This document shows, piece after piece, positions 285 through 33,711 of a stretch of DNA of 64,000 nt. Every line of letters begins with the position of its first letter. Within the stretch, counting starts at the first letter, position 1. The notes under the pieces are model-generated. The model was not told the DNA's origin. It made no database searches and was given only the letters and a program-made list of their open reading frames with translations. This DNA comes from Escherichia coli (GTDB lineage: Bacteria; Pseudomonadota; Gammaproteobacteria; Enterobacterales; Enterobacteriaceae), in assembly GCF_041248615.1 (NCBI RefSeq), contig NZ_CP158426.1. One strand, given 5' to 3'. A program made the position numbers and the translations under genes.

Positions 285-3029
285 TCAGAGTGCCTGAGCC
301 AGGTAAGTATCCAGCCATTCATGGGGCTGCATTCCTTCCCGGTAGAGAGAGTCGAAGATTTCCAGGTTGTCGGCGCTGCCGCTCATGACTTTTGTGTACC
401 TGCCGATCCCGGAAAGATCGAGCGTCACACGTGCAGCAAAACGCTTTATGTCGCCACGTCTAAATTGATTTTTTACCACTACGTACTGACGGGCCTGAGG
501 ATCCAGGGCTTTCACGACGTCGAACACTTCCGGCTCAAACTTCATTCCGTCGACATAGTGTTCCCTGTCAGCACTGGGGTTGGCTGCCAGGATCTGCGTG
601 CCGCACTGCTCAATCACGGCAGGCGCAATTTCATCCCTGATGATCTCCGCCGGGGACTGTGTTCCAACAACCAGCATCCCGTTTAGCTTGCGGATAGTTT
701 TCAGTCGGTTATAGGCGAAATCCTTAAAAACCGGATCCCGTAGCCATTTCCAGAACTCATCCATGAAGATAACCAGTCGACGTCCGTCGAGTAGGCTGGT
801 AATGCGGTACAGCAGATAAAAGGAGATCGGTGCGCAGATATTCGTATCGTCAAGAAACTCTGTGCCGTCAATGCCAAAGTTATCGCAGCGACTGATATCG
901 AAGGTGTCTGATGCGTTATCAAACACCCAGCCAAACTCGCCACCCTGCGCCCACTGTGACAGGCGAATACTCAGGCCATTCTCCTGGGCTTCTCGGGTCG
1001 CAGGCTCCGGAAGATTCTCCAGTAAACGGGTGATCCCATGAATACGGTACTGTGGTTCATTACCGATCACCGCCAGTATGGCATCATTTAGACGTCGTTC
1101 ATTGCGGGGCGTGATGGTCGCACCGTTACGCGTACACAGCAGTTTCATCAGCTGACTGATAAAACTGATATTGCGTTTCGTGGGCGATAGCGAAAATGGG
1201 TTCCACCCGGTGGGCTCTCCATGTGTAATACGGTAATAACGGCCTTGCAATGCCCGGATATTCATTTCAGCGCCACGATCCTTATCCAGATAAACGGTTG
1301 TCAGTCGTTTGGTTTTTGCGTCGGGAGAAAAACTCTCCGTACGGCTATATTTCTGCTGCATGTTTTCCAGAAACGTCATGAGCATGGTTTTACCCGAACC
1401 GTTGGTACCGAGAATGCAGGTACTGGCTGGATTCTTCTCGTTGAATTCATCCTTATCCGCCAGCGTATTGTGAAGGTTCAGATAGTATCCATCCCCTGAT
1501 GGGGCACGCAGTAAGGCCATCGCATCCCCCCAGGGCGCATTATCGCGCTTGCCGGGATAGAAATTGTGTAGCGAAGCCAGCTCGACAAAATTCTGACTGC
1601 TCAGCTCACCCTTGCGGGGCCGCAAATGATAATTGCCAGGCAGTTGCGCCATATACCCGGCTGAAAGAGAAAGCGCGGCGGGAACCGATATAATGCCGAG
1701 GTTGTTCAGGGCATTGCTGATTTCGCTGGTATCGGCTACCAGACTATCCAGCGTCTGGGAAAACACCATGATGGAAAAATGGTGTTTTCCATACGCAATT
1801 TTTCCCGATGTCAGCAGGTCAAGCGCCACATCCAGATCCAGCCGCTGAGACACCGCATCATCATCTGAACTCATTAACAGACGTCGGGTGCGTTTGATGG
1901 CCTTCCGGGCTTCTTCCCGTGACATGCAGGTGTAGGACTGTGTGATGACATAATCACAGGGGGCATAAAGCAGAGAATCCATCATTCCAGTTGCTGTTTC
2001 TTCAGGGAACTCTTTAACTTCCAGACCCCGGAAATACTGGGTGCCGCCGGTATGGTTTATCTGTCCAGACTCCCCGGAGAAAAACAGCGCCGCCGATCCC
2101 ATGACGGAATATGCAGGAGCACGGGTGACGCGGATCCTGCGCCATTGGTGCGTCAAGAGATACTCGTAAAAGGATAACTGGGAGGAGAATACCGCCTGTT
2201 CTTCGCTGAAAGTACCAAGAGAGTGTGCGGCGTAGCGTGACAGAGCGGTATCGAGGGTACCTTTAATTTCCAGCATCCCCTGCAACACACCGTCAAGCTC
2301 TTTCAGTTTCTGGCCGTCTTTCATACGCCGGTGTCCGGCTTTTTCCAGACTGGCAAAAGGGCGGTAGCAGGCAGTCAGGAACAAGCGGTTACGGCGAAAC
2401 GGGTTAGCCTCCAGCGAGGCATAATACAGACGGCTGACTTCATCAGCGTAAGGGTTGCCGGATACCTTATGTAGCGAATCGGTAAATGGCTCCCTTACGT
2501 TATGGATATAGAAGGTGACCGGCATCCCCTCGAAAGAGCGGATAATTCCGTGCAACTGGTTACGGTCAATATTGAGCGTTTCTTCTGATTCACAATCGAA
2601 CGGAGTGCCCGTCAGTTCCCAGGTACAGTAGAGGTCACTATTGGGTGAGCGGACGACATGTTGATGAATATGCGATGAATACGGAATGTATTTCCTGAGC
2701 GTGGCACTCTGATTCAATTTCATGACGTTGAGAAACTCCGTGATATCAACAGCATCATGCTCAATGGGCATAAATGCTGTTGCGCCAAATAGACGGTTTG
2801 CCGCAGGTTTTCCTCTTGCCCTGAGCCAGACGGCTATCAGGCTGAACCGCATGGGTTCATTCTTGGTAAGCGATTTCATCAGCAGAAATTCAATCGGGAG
2901 TAGGGCGAGGAAAGCGACGGAGGTCCAGACAGCAATGATGATGGTGATACCCGTGACAGCCAGTAGAGGCACCATCGGCACTCCCCATAGTGCCGCCGGA
3001 CGTCTCATTGCCTTAAGCAGCTTTGCCAT
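285..3029 (-). CDS. virB4: VirB3-VirB4 fusion, T4SS ATPase
   Basis: 914-aa ORF; N-terminal membrane segment (VirB3-like), Walker A GTNGSGKT, CagE/TrbE/VirB4-like length and layout. Confidence 0.85.
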   Translation of the reverse strand: MAKLLKAMRRPAALWGVPMVPLLAVTGITIIIAVWTSVAFLALLPIEFLLMKSLTKNEPMRFSLIAVWLRARGKPAANRLFGATAFMPIEHDAVDITEFLNVMKLNQSATLRKYIPYSSHIHQHVVRSPNSDLYCTWELTGTPFDCESEETLNIDRNQLHGIIRSFEGMPVTFYIHNVREPFTDSLHKVSGNPYADEVSRLYYASLEANPFRRNRLFLTACYRPFASLEKAGHRRMKDGQKLKELDGVLQGMLEIKGTLDTALSRYAAHSLGTFSEEQAVFSSQLSFYEYLLTHQWRRIRVTRAPAYSVMGSAALFFSGESGQINHTGGTQYFRGLEVKEFPEETATGMMDSLLYAPCDYVITQSYTCMSREEARKAIKRTRRLLMSSDDDAVSQRLDLDVALDLLTSGKIAYGKHHFSIMVFSQTLDSLVADTSEISNALNNLGIISVPAALSLSAGYMAQLPGNYHLRPRKGELSSQNFVELASLHNFYPGKRDNAPWGDAMALLRAPSGDGYYLNLHNTLADKDEFNEKNPASTCILGTNGSGKTMLMTFLENMQQKYSRTESFSPDAKTKRLTTVYLDKDRGAEMNIRALQGRYYRITHGEPTGWNPFSLSPTKRNISFISQLMKLLCTRNGATITPRNERRLNDAILAVIGNEPQYRIHGITRLLENLPEPATREAQENGLSIRLSQWAQGGEFGWVFDNASDTFDISRCDNFGIDGTEFLDDTNICAPISFYLLYRITSLLDGRRLVIFMDEFWKWLRDPVFKDFAYNRLKTIRKLNGMLVVGTQSPAEIIRDEIAPAVIEQCGTQILAANPSADREHYVDGMKFEPEVFDVVKALDPQARQYVVVKNQFRRGDIKRFAARVTLDLSGIGRYTKVMSGSADNLEIFDSLYREGMQPHEWLDTYLAQAL

Positions 3030-17855: not shown

Positions 17856-17931
17856 TGGCTCCTCTGACTGGACTCGAACCAGTGACATACGGATTAACAG
17901 TCCGCCGTTCTACCGACTGAACTACAGAGGA
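17856..17931 (-). tRNA. tRNA-Asn (anticodon GTT)
   Basis: Reverse complement reads TCCTCTGTAGTTCAGTCGGTAGAACGGCGGACTGTTAATCCG...GGTTCGAGTCCAGTCAGAGGAGCCA; 76 nt cloverleaf. Confidence 0.9.
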
Positions 17932-18031
17932 ATCGTGTGAACGGGGCGCATATTACTTAGCGGTACCTTGTCTGTCAACACTAAATTTCATAAGCCATTT
18001 CAATTGGTTAATTAATCTGCAAAGTTGTTAA

Positions 18032-18868
18032 TTAATGAACATTCGTCGCCGAAAACGAGTCTGTATCATTAGCGTGATGCAGTCTCTGCAAAGGATCTTG
18101 TTGATAAAATTGGCAGAAACGTTGCCACAATGAAGGGAAACGAGGAGCAAAAAGTTCTGGGGCGCTAAAGAAATATTCAGAAAGTACGGCAAAACACTCA
18201 GCAGGATCACTGGCAGCATAAGCATCGATGCTCGCCGCATTCTCGCCAACTAATTCGATTTCTTCCTGAATGTTGTTCATTGCAGCATGAAGATCGTGTT
18301 CCCAGCTAGCAACCTCACGCAACGGAATAAAGGGAACTCCGCTGGCGCGATCGCCGTTACGGGTGTCCAGCTTATGAGCGACTTCATGAATAATCAGGTT
18401 AAAACCAGAAGCATCAAAAGAATCTTGTATATCCAACCAGTTCAAAACGATAGGCCCTTGCTGCCAGCTCTGACCTGACTGAACAATACGTTGGTTATGC
18501 ACCAGACCGATATCGTCTTCCCATTCGTCATCGACCACAAATGGCGCAGGATAAATTAAGACTTCATGAAAACCATCCAGCCATTCCAGTCCTAACTCCA
18601 GAACGGGCAGGCAAAATAGAAGTGCTATCCGGCAGCTTCTTAATGAATCCAGTTCAAAGCCCTGTAAAGGAACAAGCCGCTTTTGCTGTAAAAAACGTTC
18701 GGCAAGAGTGACTAATTTGCTTTGTTCCTGTTCCGTCAGACACGTTAAAAGGGGGATCGATAGTGCTTCCTGCCAGGGAAGGGCAGTTTGATGTGCTGAT
18801 TCTTGTACTTTCCAGGGCCACTTAATCATCGTTTTGCTCGCAAACTCGTCACTTGAACAAAATTGCAC
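18032..18868 (-). CDS. mtfA: MtfA (Mlc titration factor A, zinc peptidase)
   Basis: 278-aa ORF; HEVAHKLD zinc-binding motif; sequence matches my recollection of E. coli YeeI/MtfA. Confidence 0.85.
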
Positions 18869-18922
18869 GGACAGGGACTGTTAAAATGCCAAATTTCCTG
18901 GCATCATGGCAACCATCTGAAC

Positions 18923-19012
18923 GGAGAGATGCCGGAGCGGCTGAACGGACCGGTCTCGAAAACCGGAGTGGGGGCAACTCCACCGGGGGTTCAAATCCCC
19001 CTCTCTCCGCCA
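18923..19012 (+). tRNA. serU: tRNA-Ser (anticodon CGA), serU-like; 3' half is attL
   Basis: GGAGAGATGCCGGAGCGGCTGAACGGACCGGTCTCGAAAACC...GGGGGTTCAAATCCCCCTCTCTCCGCCA; long variable arm; 90 nt. Confidence 0.9.
18951..19012 (+). repeat. attL (3' portion of tRNA-Ser)
   Basis: 62 bp matching 60161-60222 with two substitutions. Confidence 0.8.
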
Positions 19013-23432: not shown

Positions 23433-23490
23433 AAAAAGGGCGGCAGAGCAGTCACGGAGTAAAACTGATACCGCCAAACGTCACCAGAAA
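23433..23490 (-). ncRNA. dicF: DicF small RNA
   Basis: Minus strand reads TTTCTGGTGACGTTTGGCGGTATCAGTTTTACTCCGTGACTGCTCTGCCGCCCTTTTT, matching DicF from memory, with intrinsic terminator; lies between ydfC and dicB. Confidence 0.7.
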
Positions 23491-27463: not shown

Positions 27464-27701
27464 CGAGATTAAAGTGCATTAGTTCAGATGTAAATTGACA
27501 TTTTGTGGCACAGGGTAGAGCTAGCGTGGTTGTCCGCTTTGTGCCAAAAGCAGACATTGATAACATTGAGATATGTTAATTTATAGGGAGCAGCTCAAGG
27601 CCCACTGGAACTTCCAGTTTTTGCCCCTGAAACCGTTCCCAATGAGCACTTCCATCTGAAGACTGCGCAGTCTTAGTTTTCGTTGCCTTTAGTTTATCCC
27701 T

Positions 27702-29036
27702 TTATGATACCGATAAAAACTTTGTTGCAATTTCTGCTGCCGTTTTCTCCATGCTGGGATATACAGTGCTTTCGGATATATTAAGCTGCGCCAGCTCTTC
27801 CAGAATTTTATTTTTGTTCGCTATCTCCACTCTGTTAAGAGGAAACTCAGCATCTGTTTCCGGTAAAATGGGATCAAGTCCGAACAGAAGAAAAGCTCCT
27901 GCCTGAGATTGTATGCGTTCATTATTTATTTTAGCCTTAAGGAAAACAACTTTCCTTAAGTCATCAGGAATTATTCTGTTTCTGAAATATGATTTTTCAT
28001 TCTGTATAAGGTCTGCAAGTTTATCCGTGAGTTCAGATAACTCCATATTACCTTTTCTGGAATCAGAGGAGGACAATTTTTCCAACTCTTCGTAAGATAA
28101 AAGTGATAAGTTTGCTATACAGCTCACTGTATCTGAGTCGAAATATTTAATTTTCTTTCTATTTGTTGAAAACGAAATCACCTGTCCGTTTTCATCGGGG
28201 TTCGAACAGCAAGCAAAATATAATGCTATCAGTGGGTTAGATGTAATGTCTAAGAGTCTTGTAGGCAAGCCATAATGCTGCATGCGGACAAGTTTATCAA
28301 TCGTAAATTTATCCTCCTTAAATTCATTTGGTCTTGCGCTGAGTATTTCACGTACTAAATCAGATTCTGAAGCAAGATGCCTGTACGTCCCGTTTTGATT
28401 TTTTCTGTAAAGAGAGGGGACAAGCTCATATGAGCTTTTAGAGTGTCCACGATAAAAGGTAATGAGACCATCACGAAAGTTTTTCTTTATGAAATTAAGA
28501 TAATCTATAATATTCTCGACTACTGGGTATGTTTGTTTTTTTAATTTGATTGTACCTTTCAGTTGGCTATTTTGTTTGTTTAAACCAAGTGATTCCAGAA
28601 CAATATTTAAATCCTTATTTTTTACTGCCCAATGTGTACGACTTAACCCGAAAGATCCTAGCCCTAGGGTTTCTTTATATAATGTCGTTTGGGGATTCGT
28701 TATTTCTCCAAAATTATGATTAATCTTGAAAGAAAATAAAATATCGCCACCATCTTTACGTAAGTTTCTTATTTCCCCAAGTCTGATCCTGATGTACTTG
28801 TTTGTATCATATTCATCATCTTTTGTATAAGTTTCGGTCATGAACAATACTGGTAGCTTGGCGAGTTCTCTTAAGGTATCGGGTCTTATTGGTGTTAATT
28901 TACTGTAAATATCGCTTGGGGTGCCTTCCAGCATGCGGGACATCGAGAATCTTTCCTCGCCTTCTTTAAGCCCAGGGTCCATACACGGCCAGCGGTCAAA
29001 AACGTCCGGTTCTCCGGCCATGATTAAGCTAAACAT
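27702..29036 (-). CDS. FRG-domain protein (candidate anti-phage/abortive-infection moron)
   Basis: 444-aa ORF on the opposite strand to neighbours, in ~1.9 kb AT-rich block; motifs FYRGHS, LVPSLYR, QHYGLPTRLLDITSNPLIALYFA fit the FRG domain as I recall it; palindromic hairpin at its 3' end. Confidence 0.6.
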   Translation of the reverse strand: MFSLIMAGEPDVFDRWPCMDPGLKEGEERFSMSRMLEGTPSDIYSKLTPIRPDTLRELAKLPVLFMTETYTKDDEYDTNKYIRIRLGEIRNLRKDGGDILFSFKINHNFGEITNPQTTLYKETLGLGSFGLSRTHWAVKNKDLNIVLESLGLNKQNSQLKGTIKLKKQTYPVVENIIDYLNFIKKNFRDGLITFYRGHSKSSYELVPSLYRKNQNGTYRHLASESDLVREILSARPNEFKEDKFTIDKLVRMQHYGLPTRLLDITSNPLIALYFACCSNPDENGQVISFSTNRKKIKYFDSDTVSCIANLSLLSYEELEKLSSSDSRKGNMELSELTDKLADLIQNEKSYFRNRIIPDDLRKVVFLKAKINNERIQSQAGAFLLFGLDPILPETDAEFPLNRVEIANKNKILEELAQLNISESTVYPSMEKTAAEIATKFLSVS

Positions 29037-29324
29037 CGCAATCTCCTAAATTTACTTGCTAAAGTCAGTGTACTTTTATCATGTTGCTTCATTGTGTATG
29101 AAAGTAACATTGGTTGTCCATGCTCGTTTGTCTCTCATAATTCACAAATTTGCGAATATTTTTTATAAAAAATTCAAAACAGATAGGTTGACACAATCAA
29201 AATTCACAAAGGGCACCTGCTTCTAATGTGGTTACGGCCCGATCATACGGGCAATGTCTTTCCATTATTGAAAACTCCGGGATCAACCATGATATATGAA
29301 GTCTCTTGCTATCCAGTTAAGTAA

Positions 29325-29615
29325 ATGTCTGCTTCTCGCTCAAAGCGGGCTAGAAGGTTAGCTTGCGTCGGACTTGGCGTATTTAAAGAAGTGCTGGTGG
29401 TGACAGGTTATTATGTTCCATTTCTACAGAACAAAATCACAGAAACTATACCCAATAGTTGTATTGAATCACTGACGAGACATCCTCATATTTATCAGGA
29501 CTGGTGTACGTCCAATACAGGAGGTTGTGGTGCTGGTTCTCAAATGTGCGCTGGCTATTGCTGCTGTAATGGCAATTTATTGCCTTGCTGTTGTTCTTAT
29601 GGATCGCCTTTCTGA
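29325..29615 (+). CDS. Possible small Cys-rich protein (uncertain)
   Basis: 96-aa ORF ending GGCGAGSQMCAGYCCCNGNLLPCCCSYGSPF; no convincing RBS; divergent from the FRG gene. Confidence 0.25.
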   Translation: MSASRSKRARRLACVGLGVFKEVLVVTGYYVPFLQNKITETIPNSCIESLTRHPHIYQDWCTSNTGGCGAGSQMCAGYCCCNGNLLPCCCSYGSPF

Positions 29616-29830
29616 TTGATTTTATATTGGCGAGGTGACGTGAGTTAAGTAGAATTGCTGCGGGTGCTTGAGGCTATCTGCCTCAGGCATGAACACCAAA
29701 GGCAGATAGAGAAAAGCCCCAGTTAACATTACGCGTCCTGCAAGACGCTTAACATTAATCTGAGGCTCAATCTATGAACGGCAAATCTAGGTTAGCCTCT
29801 TACGTGCCGAAAGGCAAGGAGAAGCAGGCT

Positions 29831-29986
29831 ATGAAGCAGCAAAAGGCGATGTTAATCGCCCTGATCGTCATCTGTTTAACCGTCATTGTGACGGCACTGG
29901 TAACGAGGAAAGACCTCTGCGAGGTACGAATCCGAACCGGCCAGACGGAGGTCGCTGTCTTCACAGCTTACGAACCTGAGGAGTAA
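29831..29986 (+). CDS. hokD: Hok/Gef-family type I toxin (HokD-like), with overlapping mok frame from 29774
   Basis: MKQQKAMLIALIVICLTVIVTALVTRKDLCEVRIRTGQTEVAVFTAYEPEE; upstream leader stem-loop CTATCTGCCT...AGGCAGATAG. Confidence 0.85.
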   Translation: MKQQKAMLIALIVICLTVIVTALVTRKDLCEVRIRTGQTEVAVFTAYEPEE

Positions 29987-30129
29987 GAGACCTGGCGGGG
30001 GAGAAATCCCTCGCCACCTCTGATGTGTCAGGCATCCTCAACGCACCCGCACTTAACCCGCTTCGGCGTTTTTTCCGTTGATTAACTCTAGTTATTAGAG
30101 AACCGAACTTTTATTGATGGGGCAGGGAG

Positions 30130-30522
30130 ATGAAGAAACTTGTTTTAGTCGCAGGTGTAATGATTGCAACAGTAATGTTGGGAGGGTGTGCAGCAAAGGT
30201 CGATCCAGCGTTGAAAGCAGAAGCAATGAAGCCACTAACATGTAATGATGAAAAGCAATGTGACTTTTATTGGAAACGAGCGCAATTCTGGTTGGCTAAT
30301 AATTCCTCATGGAAAATTCAAACGGCGACAGACACGCTAATTTCCACTTATAATCCCTCTCCAAATAGTCCATTCCTCGCTTATCAAGTGAGTAAAATGC
30401 CAAATGAAGATGGATCCTCAAGAATTTTCATCAAGCCTTTTTGCGATAATATGTTTGGCTGTCAACCAAACCCCTATCAGGCAGTTGTTTCCTTTAAAAA
30501 CTTCGTTAAAACAGGGCAGTAG
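30130..30522 (+). CDS. Prophage lipoprotein
   Basis: 130-aa ORF with lipobox LGGC after a hydrophobic signal; Cys-containing mature part. Confidence 0.6.
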   Translation: MKKLVLVAGVMIATVMLGGCAAKVDPALKAEAMKPLTCNDEKQCDFYWKRAQFWLANNSSWKIQTATDTLISTYNPSPNSPFLAYQVSKMPNEDGSSRIFIKPFCDNMFGCQPNPYQAVVSFKNFVKTGQ

Positions 30523-30720
30523 TGTATAGCTTGGACGATAAATTATTAGTGAAAACGCCGTAAACCCTCACCCAATGTGGACTAAGCCTATCAAACATGA
30601 CTGTGATGATTAGTCCGTAGTTGTTGCCTATGAAATCTGGATTGAGTCAGGGTTTAATCCAATAATTATTCTATCGTTCCTTTACAAGTCTGGTATATTA
30701 CTTTCAGTTTGTTTTAGCAT

Positions 30721-33295: not shown

Positions 33296-33401
33296 GTGCC
33301 ACTTATCTCGGATAGACATGGTGAATGCGCTAGTGGAGGAGATAAGGGTGATTTTTGAATGCTTGCAACATTGATTTCGTAACGTTATTATCCTGCGCCC
33401 G

Positions 33402-33477
33402 GCCCTTTAGCTCAGTGGTGAGAGCGAGCGACTCATAATCGCCAGGTCGCTGGTTCAAATCCAGCAAGGGCCACCAG
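33402..33477 (+). tRNA. tRNA with CAT anticodon (Met or Ile2, ileZ-like)
   Basis: GGCCCTTTAGCTCAGTGGTGAGAGC...CTCATAATCGC...GGTTCAAATCCAGCAAGGGCCACCA. Confidence 0.8.
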
Positions 33478-33478
33478 C

Positions 33479-33555
33479 CGCCACTAGCTCATCAGGAAAG
33501 AGCGTCAACCCTTTAAGTTGAGTGTGCGAGGTTCGAGTCCCCGGTGGCGGTCCAG
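33479..33555 (+). tRNA. tRNA-like gene, anticodon ambiguous (loop CCTTTAA, nominal TTT)
   Basis: 7-bp acceptor stem CCGCCAC/GTGGCGG, D and T arms present, CCA end; atypical C at position 33; T-stem has one A-C mismatch. Confidence 0.5.
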
Positions 33556-33556
33556 T

Positions 33557-33633
<77 letters not shown>

Positions 33634-33635
33634 AT

Positions 33636-33711
<76 letters not shown>

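Follow-up and report, generated by a model that had tools for sequence, protein, structure and literature searches.

The segment at positions 29627-30074 on the plus strand of the window, as we call the whole 64,000-nucleotide stretch of Escherichia coli DNA that was analyzed (contig NZ_CP158426.1), is very probably an intact and autonomous hok/mok/sok type I toxin-antitoxin cassette of the hokD/hokW lineage, carried by an E. coli lambdoid prophage and operating by the mechanism of the R1 paradigm. All of the defining parts of a hok/mok/sok locus that sequence can test are present and intact in this interval, and over 417 bp the DNA is 93.5% identical to hokW-mokW-sokW of 933W / Sakai Sp5, a pair characterized by experiment. 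Both findings support the first-pass annotation, which had read a hok/mok/sok-type locus at 29616-30060; the cassette does lie there, but the functional unit extends slightly beyond the right end of that range. The locus is an allele of hokW-sokW and, as such, already known: a textbook module with nothing new in the cassette itself. Its features are as follows.

29627-29655, plus strand: sigma-70-like hok promoter, with -35 TTGGCG (29627-29632), a 17-nt spacer and -10 TAGAAT (29650-29655), 9 of 12 matches in a promoter scan.
29662-30074, plus strand: predicted full-length hok mRNA of about 413 nt, its 5' end placed by position 1 of the Rfam model and by the R1-type locus, its 3' end at the T-run.
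29662-29683, plus strand: tac element, with three alternative partners (a local metastable hairpin, fbi and ucb) according to folds and inverted repeats.
29664-29690, plus strand: metastable hairpin predicted at the 5' end of nascent RNA, GUGCUUGAGGC/GCCUCAGGCAU (fold; inverted repeat I8).
29700-29720, plus strand: ucb, the anti-SD of mok, whose partner in the folds is the mok SD as long as the RNA is full length and tac once it has been processed.
29762-29765, plus strand: SD of mok, GAGG, 8 nt 5' of the mok ATG, pairing with ucb in the full-length fold and with dcb in the truncated one.
29774-29986, plus strand: mok reading frame of 70 codons, containing hok in frame (list of open reading frames; layout as in mokW).
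29794-29799, plus strand: dcb, which in the minimum free energy fold of the truncated RNA pairs with the mok SD region at 29762-29767 and so forms the Sok-target hairpin of the processed RNA.
29816-29821, plus strand: SD of hok, AAGGAG, sequestered in a local hairpin (sequence and fold; helix 6, 94.7% paired in 68 sequences).
29831-29986, plus strand: hok (hokD allele), encoding the 51-residue membrane toxin (reading frame, Pfam, PHROG and RefSeq name).
29994-30015, plus strand: 3' stem-loop GGCGGGGGAG-AAAU-CCCUCGCC, expected to shield the 3' end of the mRNA once it is processed (folds).
30036-30048, plus strand: fbi, CCUCAACGCACCC, which but for a single bulged C is complementary to GGGUGCUUGAGG at the 5' end (fold; inverted repeats I7 and I2).
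30057-30074, plus strand: degenerate intrinsic terminator, CCCGCUUCGGCG plus U6, with a 3-bp stem (folding and homology).
29782 to 29712, minus strand: putative Sok antisense gene of 71 nt, whose 5' tail of 14 nt is single-stranded and is followed by a long terminator hairpin and UUUU (positional homology to the sokW misc_RNA of 933W).
29789-29817, minus strand: putative Sok promoter, with -35 TTGCCT (29817-29812), a 17-nt spacer, -10 TAACCT (29794-29789) and a start near 29782, read from the sequence.

The product of hok, MKQQKAMLIALIVICLTVIVTALVTRKDLCEVRIRTGQTEVAVFTAYEPEE (the translation of 29831-29986), matches Pfam model HOK_GEF, PF01848, with an E-value of 1.2e-23 (82.9 bits, for a cutoff of 22) and PHROG 251, "MokW-like host killing," with an E-value of 2.8e-33. 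Hok-family models of NCBIfam match it as well, under their cutoffs (48.5 bits vs. 73). RefSeq, on identical DNA, names the gene hokD, with accession WP_000813254.1; the term "HokD-like" in the first-pass annotation thus put the toxin in the right family but was worded too weakly, as the protein has the HokD accession itself. The Tyr47 codon of hok falls within a TACG motif, at 29969-29972, that is invariant in 68 sequences, and TACG at the Tyr47 codon of hokD is a reported site of A-to-I editing by TadA (PMC5630033).

The ATG of mok, at 29774, is 57 nt upstream of hok and in the same frame, so that mok is an N-terminal extension of hok and not a shifted overlapping frame. An upstream mok frame had been noted in the first pass; its place was right, but the description of it as an overlapping frame does not suit an in-frame extension. 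With its own SD, an upstream start and overlap with hok, mok has, on its sequence, the architecture through which translation of the two would be coupled. The in-frame form of 70 codons occurs in 70 of 88 related cassettes. The layout does vary within the family, the alternative to this in-frame form being a leader ORF of 19 codons with a UGA that overlaps the AUG of hok.

Folding predictions for the mRNA, which were compared to the R1 scheme with element definitions taken from PMC9841398, contain all of the R1-type switches: metastable 5' hairpin, tac/fbi, tac/ucb, ucb/mok-SD and mok-SD/dcb. The full-length RNA (29662-30076) has a minimum free energy of -167 kcal/mol and a z-score of -7.8, with none of 100 shuffled sequences as good. 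In its fold, the 5' GGGUGCUUGAGG pairs with CCUCAACGCACCC at 30036-30048, as tac/fbi, and the SD of mok pairs with AGCCCCAG in ucb. When fbi is removed (29662-30035, z -6.5), the predicted fold changes to a tac/ucb stem plus a hairpin between GAGGCU (29762-67) and AGCCUC (29794-99), the mok SD and dcb. The first 31 nt taken alone (29662-29692) form a tight local hairpin of -19.6 kcal/mol, with a z-score of -5.0. A 10-bp stem-loop described in the first-pass annotation, with arms CTATCTGCCT (29674-29683) and AGGCAGATAG (29700-29709), is real, and its positions and pairing are exactly as claimed; an inverted repeat of 21 nt, I1, has these arms at its core, as does a hairpin with a free energy of -30.3 kcal/mol and a z-score of -5.2. 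The stem-loop is, however, no generic leader hairpin but the tac/ucb stem of the processed mRNA. The flanking hairpins mentioned alongside it are likewise real in the folds. By analogy to R1 (PMC9841398), the stem-loop at 29994-30015 is expected to protect the processed 3' end.

A scan for consensus promoters and terminators found the hok promoter but neither the Sok promoter nor the hok terminator, and these two were placed by homology and folding. The -10 of hok, TAGAAT, is kept in 933W and in Rac and lies 7 nt upstream of the start of the Rfam model. The hok terminator has a free energy of just -3.1 kcal/mol and a 3-bp stem, vs. -11.8 kcal/mol and a 7-bp stem for the family consensus, a weak variant found in 5 of about 140 related loci. 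It could alter the 3' end and the kinetics of processing.

The predicted Sok RNA folds at -30 kcal/mol (z -5.6), leaving free a 14-nt 5' tail that is complementary to 29769-29782, mok start included. A cis-antisense Sok gene that covers the mok start, with a promoter and terminator of its own, can thus be read from the sequence, and the antisense Sok region predicted in the first pass is borne out at that level: the annotated sokW and the minus-strand stretch from 29782 to 29712 are collinear. Both hexamers of the Sok promoter are identical to those of sokW in 933W, where a mutation of the -10 abolished antitoxicity (PMC8621323).

The 933W locus resembles the one in the window in further ways. 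It is prophage-borne; mok is in frame there too, mokW having the same coordinates relative to hokW as mok has to hok in the window; a 71-nt Sok occupies the same relative position; and the Hok proteins are 92% identical. The two differ at the Hok C-terminus (FTAYEPEE in the window, FVDYESEK in 933W), in the Sok 5' tail with mok codons 2-5 (AACGGCAAATC in the window, CTGAACACATG in 933W), in the -35 region and in the terminator. They differ also in their position within the phage genome, between replication genes and Q for the window but near the right end of the record for 933W. Experiments have shown hokW-sokW to be a type I toxin-antitoxin pair, in which sokW, acting from its own promoter, counteracts the toxicity of HokW, in part dependent on RNase III and Hfq (PMC8621323). 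After mitomycin C treatment, sokW was lost and HokW was induced in a RecA-dependent manner; a strain deleted for hokW-sokW showed half the phage release, and the locus speeds release (PMC8621323).

Three other known systems help to place the cassette. The hokD gene linked to relBE encodes a protein with the same accession, WP_000813254.1, and has a homologous 3' UTR, fbi and terminator region, but in the relB-relE-hokD record examined, from strain AR_0369, homology begins only at 29817, 14 nt before the hok ATG, which leaves that copy without promoter, tac, ucb, mok start and sok. This relB-relE-hokD arrangement is one we take to be that of E. coli K-12 (hokD/relF, Qin prophage). The window does not have it: the full leader is present along with mok and sok, and no relBE lies upstream. 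The hok/mok/sok locus of R1/NR1 shares the architecture, the predicted RNA switches and a homologous tac/ucb hairpin with the window, and Rfam model RF01794 matches both. However, R1-type Hok is only 42% identical to Hok of the window, the mok of the R1-type locus starts in another frame than its hok (ATG at 428 vs. 466 in the sequence of that locus) whereas mok of the window is in frame, and the R1/NR1 locus is plasmid-borne with a role in plasmid stabilization. We assume that the hokC/mokC (gef) locus of K-12, on the chromosome, is a Hok/Gef member in which mok extends hok in frame, as in the window. It is a different locus and a different allele, and a leader resembling that of mokC, ...PLTDRKVKEK, is found in some relatives of the window cassette. 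The K-12 copy of hokC is reported as inactivated in work cited in PMC5630033.

The prophage setting agrees with the first-pass annotation, in which an accessory cluster with an FRG gene and a lipoprotein lay between the replication and Q modules; the cassette is found between replication-region genes and DUF968/RusA/Q. Strain XDL and seven other complete genomes among the matches listed are 100% identical to the window over the 3-kb block at 27600-30600. Gene order in XDL runs from tRNA-Ser, integrase, exonuclease, DicB, YdfC/B/A, repressor/Cro-like genes, YdaT and replication-region genes to the FRG-domain gene (minus strand), hokD, three hypothetical genes, DUF968, RusA, Q, tRNAs, lysis genes and terminase. 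Rfam additionally places DicF at 23438-23489 on the minus strand. On the other side of the cassette from the FRG gene, an ORF of 130 residues has a lipobox-like LGGC in its N-terminus, as read from the translation; Pfam, NCBIfam and PADLOC return nothing for it, and PHROGs only phrog_16082, of unknown function.

Because the adjacent FRG-domain protein matches the PADLOC candidate defense family PDC-S15 with an E-value of 7e-99, one might propose that the cassette serves mainly in abortive infection or phage exclusion, as part of a defense islet with the FRG gene, and not as a lysis helper or an addiction module. The finding, cited in PMC8621323, that R1 hok/sok on a high-copy plasmid lowered the plating efficiency of T4 by 42% points in the same direction. 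We nevertheless consider a defense role unlikely. In a survey of 44,248 Hok homologs (bioRxiv 10.1101/2025.08.07.668861), hok is enriched in prophages and not beside defense systems, and a PADLOC search with Hok itself gives no match. Nor is the FRG gene a fixed neighbor: strain 165 has an identical cassette with a different upstream gene, and the block of FRG plus hok is common to only 27 genomes.

Of 5426 complete E. coli genomes, 4767 contain the cassette family, at a median of two copies and at most ten. Most copies are chromosomal, and 536 places are on plasmids. Among 80 IMG/VR loci with an identical Hok, homology to the window typically starts at 29642/3, just before the -10, and ends at 30068-30074, at the terminator. 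Since these boundaries recur, the cassette behaves as a mosaic unit of 433 bp. For 6 of the 80, homology starts only at 29817; we infer that these six are of the relB-relE-hokD type, one record with the same boundary having been inspected.

The structure derived from the window fits its relatives well. Across 68 distinct cassettes, the paired fraction of cells is 95.6%, whereas slid controls reach 35-42%, and six pairs show a compensatory change. These include one A-U to G-C pair in ucb helix 2 (6 sequences) and one pair in helix 15, the 3' stem-loop (AU:30 GU:30 GC:7). Helix 1, tac/fbi, is 99.6% paired in the 68 sequences, with constant paired columns and a bulged column that varies among C, T and A, and tac columns G9-G19 are invariant (alignment A2, 68 sequences). 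Most tac/fbi pairs never vary, and for that reason close relatives are uninformative about this pairing. Distant ones carry more weight: the end-pairing arms TGCGGGTGC/GCACCCGCA are 375 nt apart in the window, while NR1 has arms of different sequence, GGCGCTTGAG/CTGAAGCGCC, 378 nt apart. On these sequences, tac/fbi covaries with the R1-type pair at the scale of the family, a stronger argument than covariation within it.

Intact motifs might still belong to a silent relic, unexpressed or unable to kill, that simply travels with the prophage. Chromosomal hok loci are reported to go unexpressed or to be unable to kill, the terminator of the window copy is degenerate, some relatives are broken or truncated at the start of hok, and the relBE-linked hokD is itself a truncated copy without leader, mok or sok. 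Disruption of the hok frame in close copies, which the first-pass annotation had named as grounds for giving up its reading, is not what the relatives show. These were chosen by an 18-nt tac motif alone, a choice unbiased for hok integrity, and in 90 of the 109 cassettes that could be evaluated, the 51-codon frame of hok is unbroken; those outside the 90 comprise three broken frames, a few cassettes truncated at the hok start, and several intact ones that the regular expression had missed. Within the same selection, Hok is 100% conserved in 58 of the 93 cassettes scored. The hok coding columns are the least variable of the cassette, with an entropy of 0.024 vs. 0.175 overall, a difference partly built in by an alignment chosen for 100% Hok identity. 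With every regulatory element intact, including Sok promoter hexamers identical to those of the functional hokW-sokW, a relic seems quite improbable, and we favor a working cassette.

The first-pass annotation had suggested an Rfam scan, and this returned model RF01794, "sok," at 29662-29836 on the plus strand (full model, 1-157) with 111.7 bits against a threshold of 59 and an E-value of 1.4e-24. On the R1-type NR1 locus, the same model also matches the sense strand, with 88.9 bits, from the known 5' end of the hok mRNA to the hok AUG, from which it follows that the Rfam "sok" family describes the sense-strand leader of hok. It is hardly credible, therefore, that the plus-strand match is the Sok gene itself, co-directional with hok, as the family title "sok antitoxin" and the high score would have it: the minus strand of the window scores only 20.5 bits, the annotated sokW of 933W is opposite in strand to hokW, and a 5' tail followed by a terminator hairpin is the predicted shape of the 71-nt antisense stretch. 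Automated annotation based on this family will misplace the strand of Sok.

One patch of the cassette, 29766-29793, which holds the mok start, the Sok 5' end, and the Sok promoter from start site through -10, is hypervariable, with an entropy of 0.68 vs. 0.175 cassette-wide, or about four-fold higher. The variation takes the form of 8-10 discrete alleles with multiple substitutions, in cassettes that are otherwise mostly 94-99% identical. The Sok-tail allele of the window, AACGGCAAATC, is the second most common of about ten. The notion that co-resident cassettes avoid sharing a Sok 5' allele found no support, as 7 of 18 within-genome pairs, some of them possibly from duplicate contigs, share an allele, against an expectation of 0.12 for random pairs.

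Directly upstream of the cassette is a conserved ORF of 29 codons for a membrane protein, 29530-29619, with a GTG start, AGGAGG 5 nt before it and the product MLVLKCALAIAAVMAIYCLAVVLMDRLSD. It stops 7 nt before the -35 of hok. A 300-bp module containing it (29327-29626) occurs in 1713 of 5426 E. coli genomes, and the ORF is unannotated in RefSeq among the matches listed. Of the 19 sites that vary across nine alleles, 11 fall on third codon positions, and 12 of 20 changes are synonymous, where 26% would be expected (p 0.0016). A diverged homolog of 34 residues, with an SD of its own, is also found directly upstream of hok cassettes. No family in Pfam, NCBIfam, PADLOC or PHROGs matches the 29-residue peptide. 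Only names from exact matches were used for it; the cluster look-up puts short peptides together with long proteins that are unrelated, among them a DUF551 protein and one of 407 residues in which the peptide does not occur.

Two further candidates in this module were rejected. A second type I toxin-antitoxin system with a folded mRNA at 29327-29626 is contradicted by z-scores of +0.35 and -0.91 for the two strands relative to shuffled sequences; RNAalifold found no compensatory pair there among 11 sequences, and Rfam gave no match. A Cys-rich ORF of 96 residues, 29325-29615, has its frame broken in 5 of 13 homologs, and substitutions track the other frame. It is conceivable, if doubtful, that the 29-codon ORF is a functional partner of the cassette, for instance one that modulates Hok or acts as another membrane effector, and that the Sok-tail alleles are specificity groups allowing independent control of co-resident copies.

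For the window copy, prediction and homology together suggest the following mechanism, each step of which is itself a prediction. A constitutive promoter would yield a stable hok mRNA of about 413 nt. As the mRNA emerges, its 5' end would be held by the local metastable hairpin, until fbi, once transcribed, pairs with the 5' tac and the ucb anti-SD buries the ribosome-binding site of mok. Because of this pairing and burial, the full-length RNA should be neither translated nor bound by Sok. Slow 3' trimming to the stem-loop at 29994-30015 would then remove fbi, letting the RNA refold into the tac/ucb stem and the mok-SD/dcb hairpin. Abundant but unstable, the 71-nt Sok would pair through its 14-nt 5' tail with the mok start region, block translation of mok and therefore the coupled translation of hok, and mark the duplex of Sok and hok mRNA for RNase III. 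Should the supply of Sok stop, through loss of the DNA, a shut-off of transcription or prophage induction, processed hok mRNA would be translated, and the 51-residue Hok, the 70-residue Mok-Hok form or both would insert in the inner membrane and kill or lyse the cell.

By analogy to hokW-sokW, the most likely role here is faster lysis and phage release upon induction. The lysis role in 933W may not transfer, since the 933W copy occupies a different region of the phage genome. Retention of the prophage, or addiction to it, is a second possibility. A passage in bioRxiv 10.1101/2025.08.07.668861, citing Pedersen & Gerdes, reports that chromosomal hokA, hokB and hokC do not mediate post-segregational killing. 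In the window, the cassette is co-oriented with the early-right genes, from replication to Q, and antiterminated read-through on induction could therefore disturb transcription of Sok. By our own reckoning, such read-through could also yield hok transcripts that lack the tac 5' end.

The discovery value of the cassette is low, as several sequenced E. coli chromosomes carry an identical copy and a close relative has been characterized experimentally. RefSeq annotates only the hokD coding sequence at this locus and omits mok and sok. What the window does show is the complete ancestral form of the truncated hokD gene that is linked to relBE.

In comparisons of the hok/mok/sok cassette with 80 homologous loci from IMG/VR, homology usually begins a little ahead of the hok -10 element, at 29642/3, and stops at 30068-30074. 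The cassette thus behaves as a mosaic unit of 433 bp (29642-30074). The left-hand start lies inside the hok promoter, and the -35 region therefore differs among copies. Features of the cassette and its immediate surroundings are as follows.

27702-29036, minus strand: FRG-domain protein of 444 aa (Pfam PF08867, E 2.6e-22)
29519-29619, including the Shine-Dalgarno sequence AGGAGG, plus strand: conserved 29-codon ORF with GTG start at 29530, not annotated
29766-29793: hypervariable patch, spanning the region of the mok start codon, the 5'-most Sok nucleotides and the Sok promoter from start site through -10
30057-30074: degenerate hok terminator, CCCGCTTCGGCG followed by TTTTTT, with a 3-bp stem (-3.1 kcal/mol)
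30130-30522, plus strand: 130-aa ORF with a signal peptide and lipobox-like LGGC (MKKLVLVAGVMIATVMLGGCAAK)

The terminator change in the window copy falls at the right-hand mosaic boundary. The consensus hok terminator, CCCGCTTCGGCGGGTTTT, has a 7-bp stem (-11.8 kcal/mol), whereas the degenerate variant, with its much weaker hairpin, occurs in five of about 140 loci. Transcripts could read past this weak terminator into the ORF that starts at 30130. That ORF matches phrog_16082, a family of unknown function (E 2.6e-84), and its N-terminus shows a faint match (E 0.007) to the Cor family of superinfection-exclusion proteins.

Entropy in the hypervariable patch is 0.68 vs 0.175 across the whole cassette. 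The patch exists as about 8-10 discrete alleles, each differing by multiple substitutions; the allele found in the window is the second commonest, carried by 28 of 180. No sign of allele exclusion within genomes was seen for this patch, as within-genome pairs included seven with the same allele and eleven with different ones. The layout of mok (29774-29833 in the window; related loci L088-L207) is also variable inside an otherwise near-identical cassette family. In seventy of 88 related cassettes mok runs for 70 codons and shares the reading frame of hok; in sixteen of the 88 there is instead a leader ORF of 19 codons, and its stop codon UGA overlaps the AUG of hok (AUGA). In the R1-type locus, by contrast, mok is out of frame with hok. 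The Tyr47 codon TAC of hok sits in a TACG motif (29969-29972), which shows no variation among 68 cassette sequences; TadA-dependent A-to-I editing, changing Tyr to Cys, has been reported at the Tyr47 position in hokC, hokD and hokE (PMC5630033).

Just 7 nt separate the hok -35 element from the end of the 29-codon ORF, which belongs to a 300-bp module carried by 1713 out of 5426 E. coli genomes; its annotation is "none" in all of the matches listed. Eleven of its 19 variable sites are at codon position 3, with twelve synonymous vs eight non-synonymous changes, and this substitution pattern indicates that the ORF is under coding constraint. A diverged homologue of 34 aa is encoded directly upstream of the hok cassettes in four related loci (L016, L074, L077 and L078). 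Protein family searches with the ORF returned no match, and no RNA-structure signal was seen in the region. The predicted product, MLVLKCALAIAAVMAIYCLAVVLMDRLSD, has a single transmembrane helix followed by a polar tail. A Cys-rich ORF of 96 aa that overlaps the 29-codon ORF (29325-29615, plus strand) was rejected as a candidate: because its frame is interrupted in five of 13 homologous loci, it is probably not a gene.

The FRG-domain protein matches PADLOC family PDC-S15, a candidate single-gene defence family (E 7e-99). The FRG gene is not fixed beside the hok cassette. Strain 165, whose cassette is identical to that in the window, has a different gene in its place, and only 27 genomes have the FRG-plus-hok block in common.

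Other RNA genes of the prophage and its flank, together with matches to the Rfam "sok antitoxin" model RF01794, are these.

17856-19012: host tRNA-Asn and tRNA-Ser(CGA), adjoining the integrase end of the prophage
23438-23489, minus strand: DicF sRNA (76.7 bits)
33401-33710, plus strand: four phage tRNA genes downstream of Q (CAT anticodon, Lys-TTT, Thr-TGT, Gly-TCC)
29662-29836, plus strand: RF01794 match in the window
292-468, plus strand: RF01794 match in L208, the R1-type hok/sok locus of plasmid NR1

The phage tRNA with the CAT anticodon is called Met by ARAGORN, and its homologue is Ile in RefSeq. RF01794 matches the sense strand of the hok mRNA, starting at the 5' end of the transcript and stopping at the AUG of hok, and the canonical R1-type locus behaves alike. 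Annotation pipelines based on this model will assign "Sok" to the wrong strand, and at about twice the length of the true RNA.
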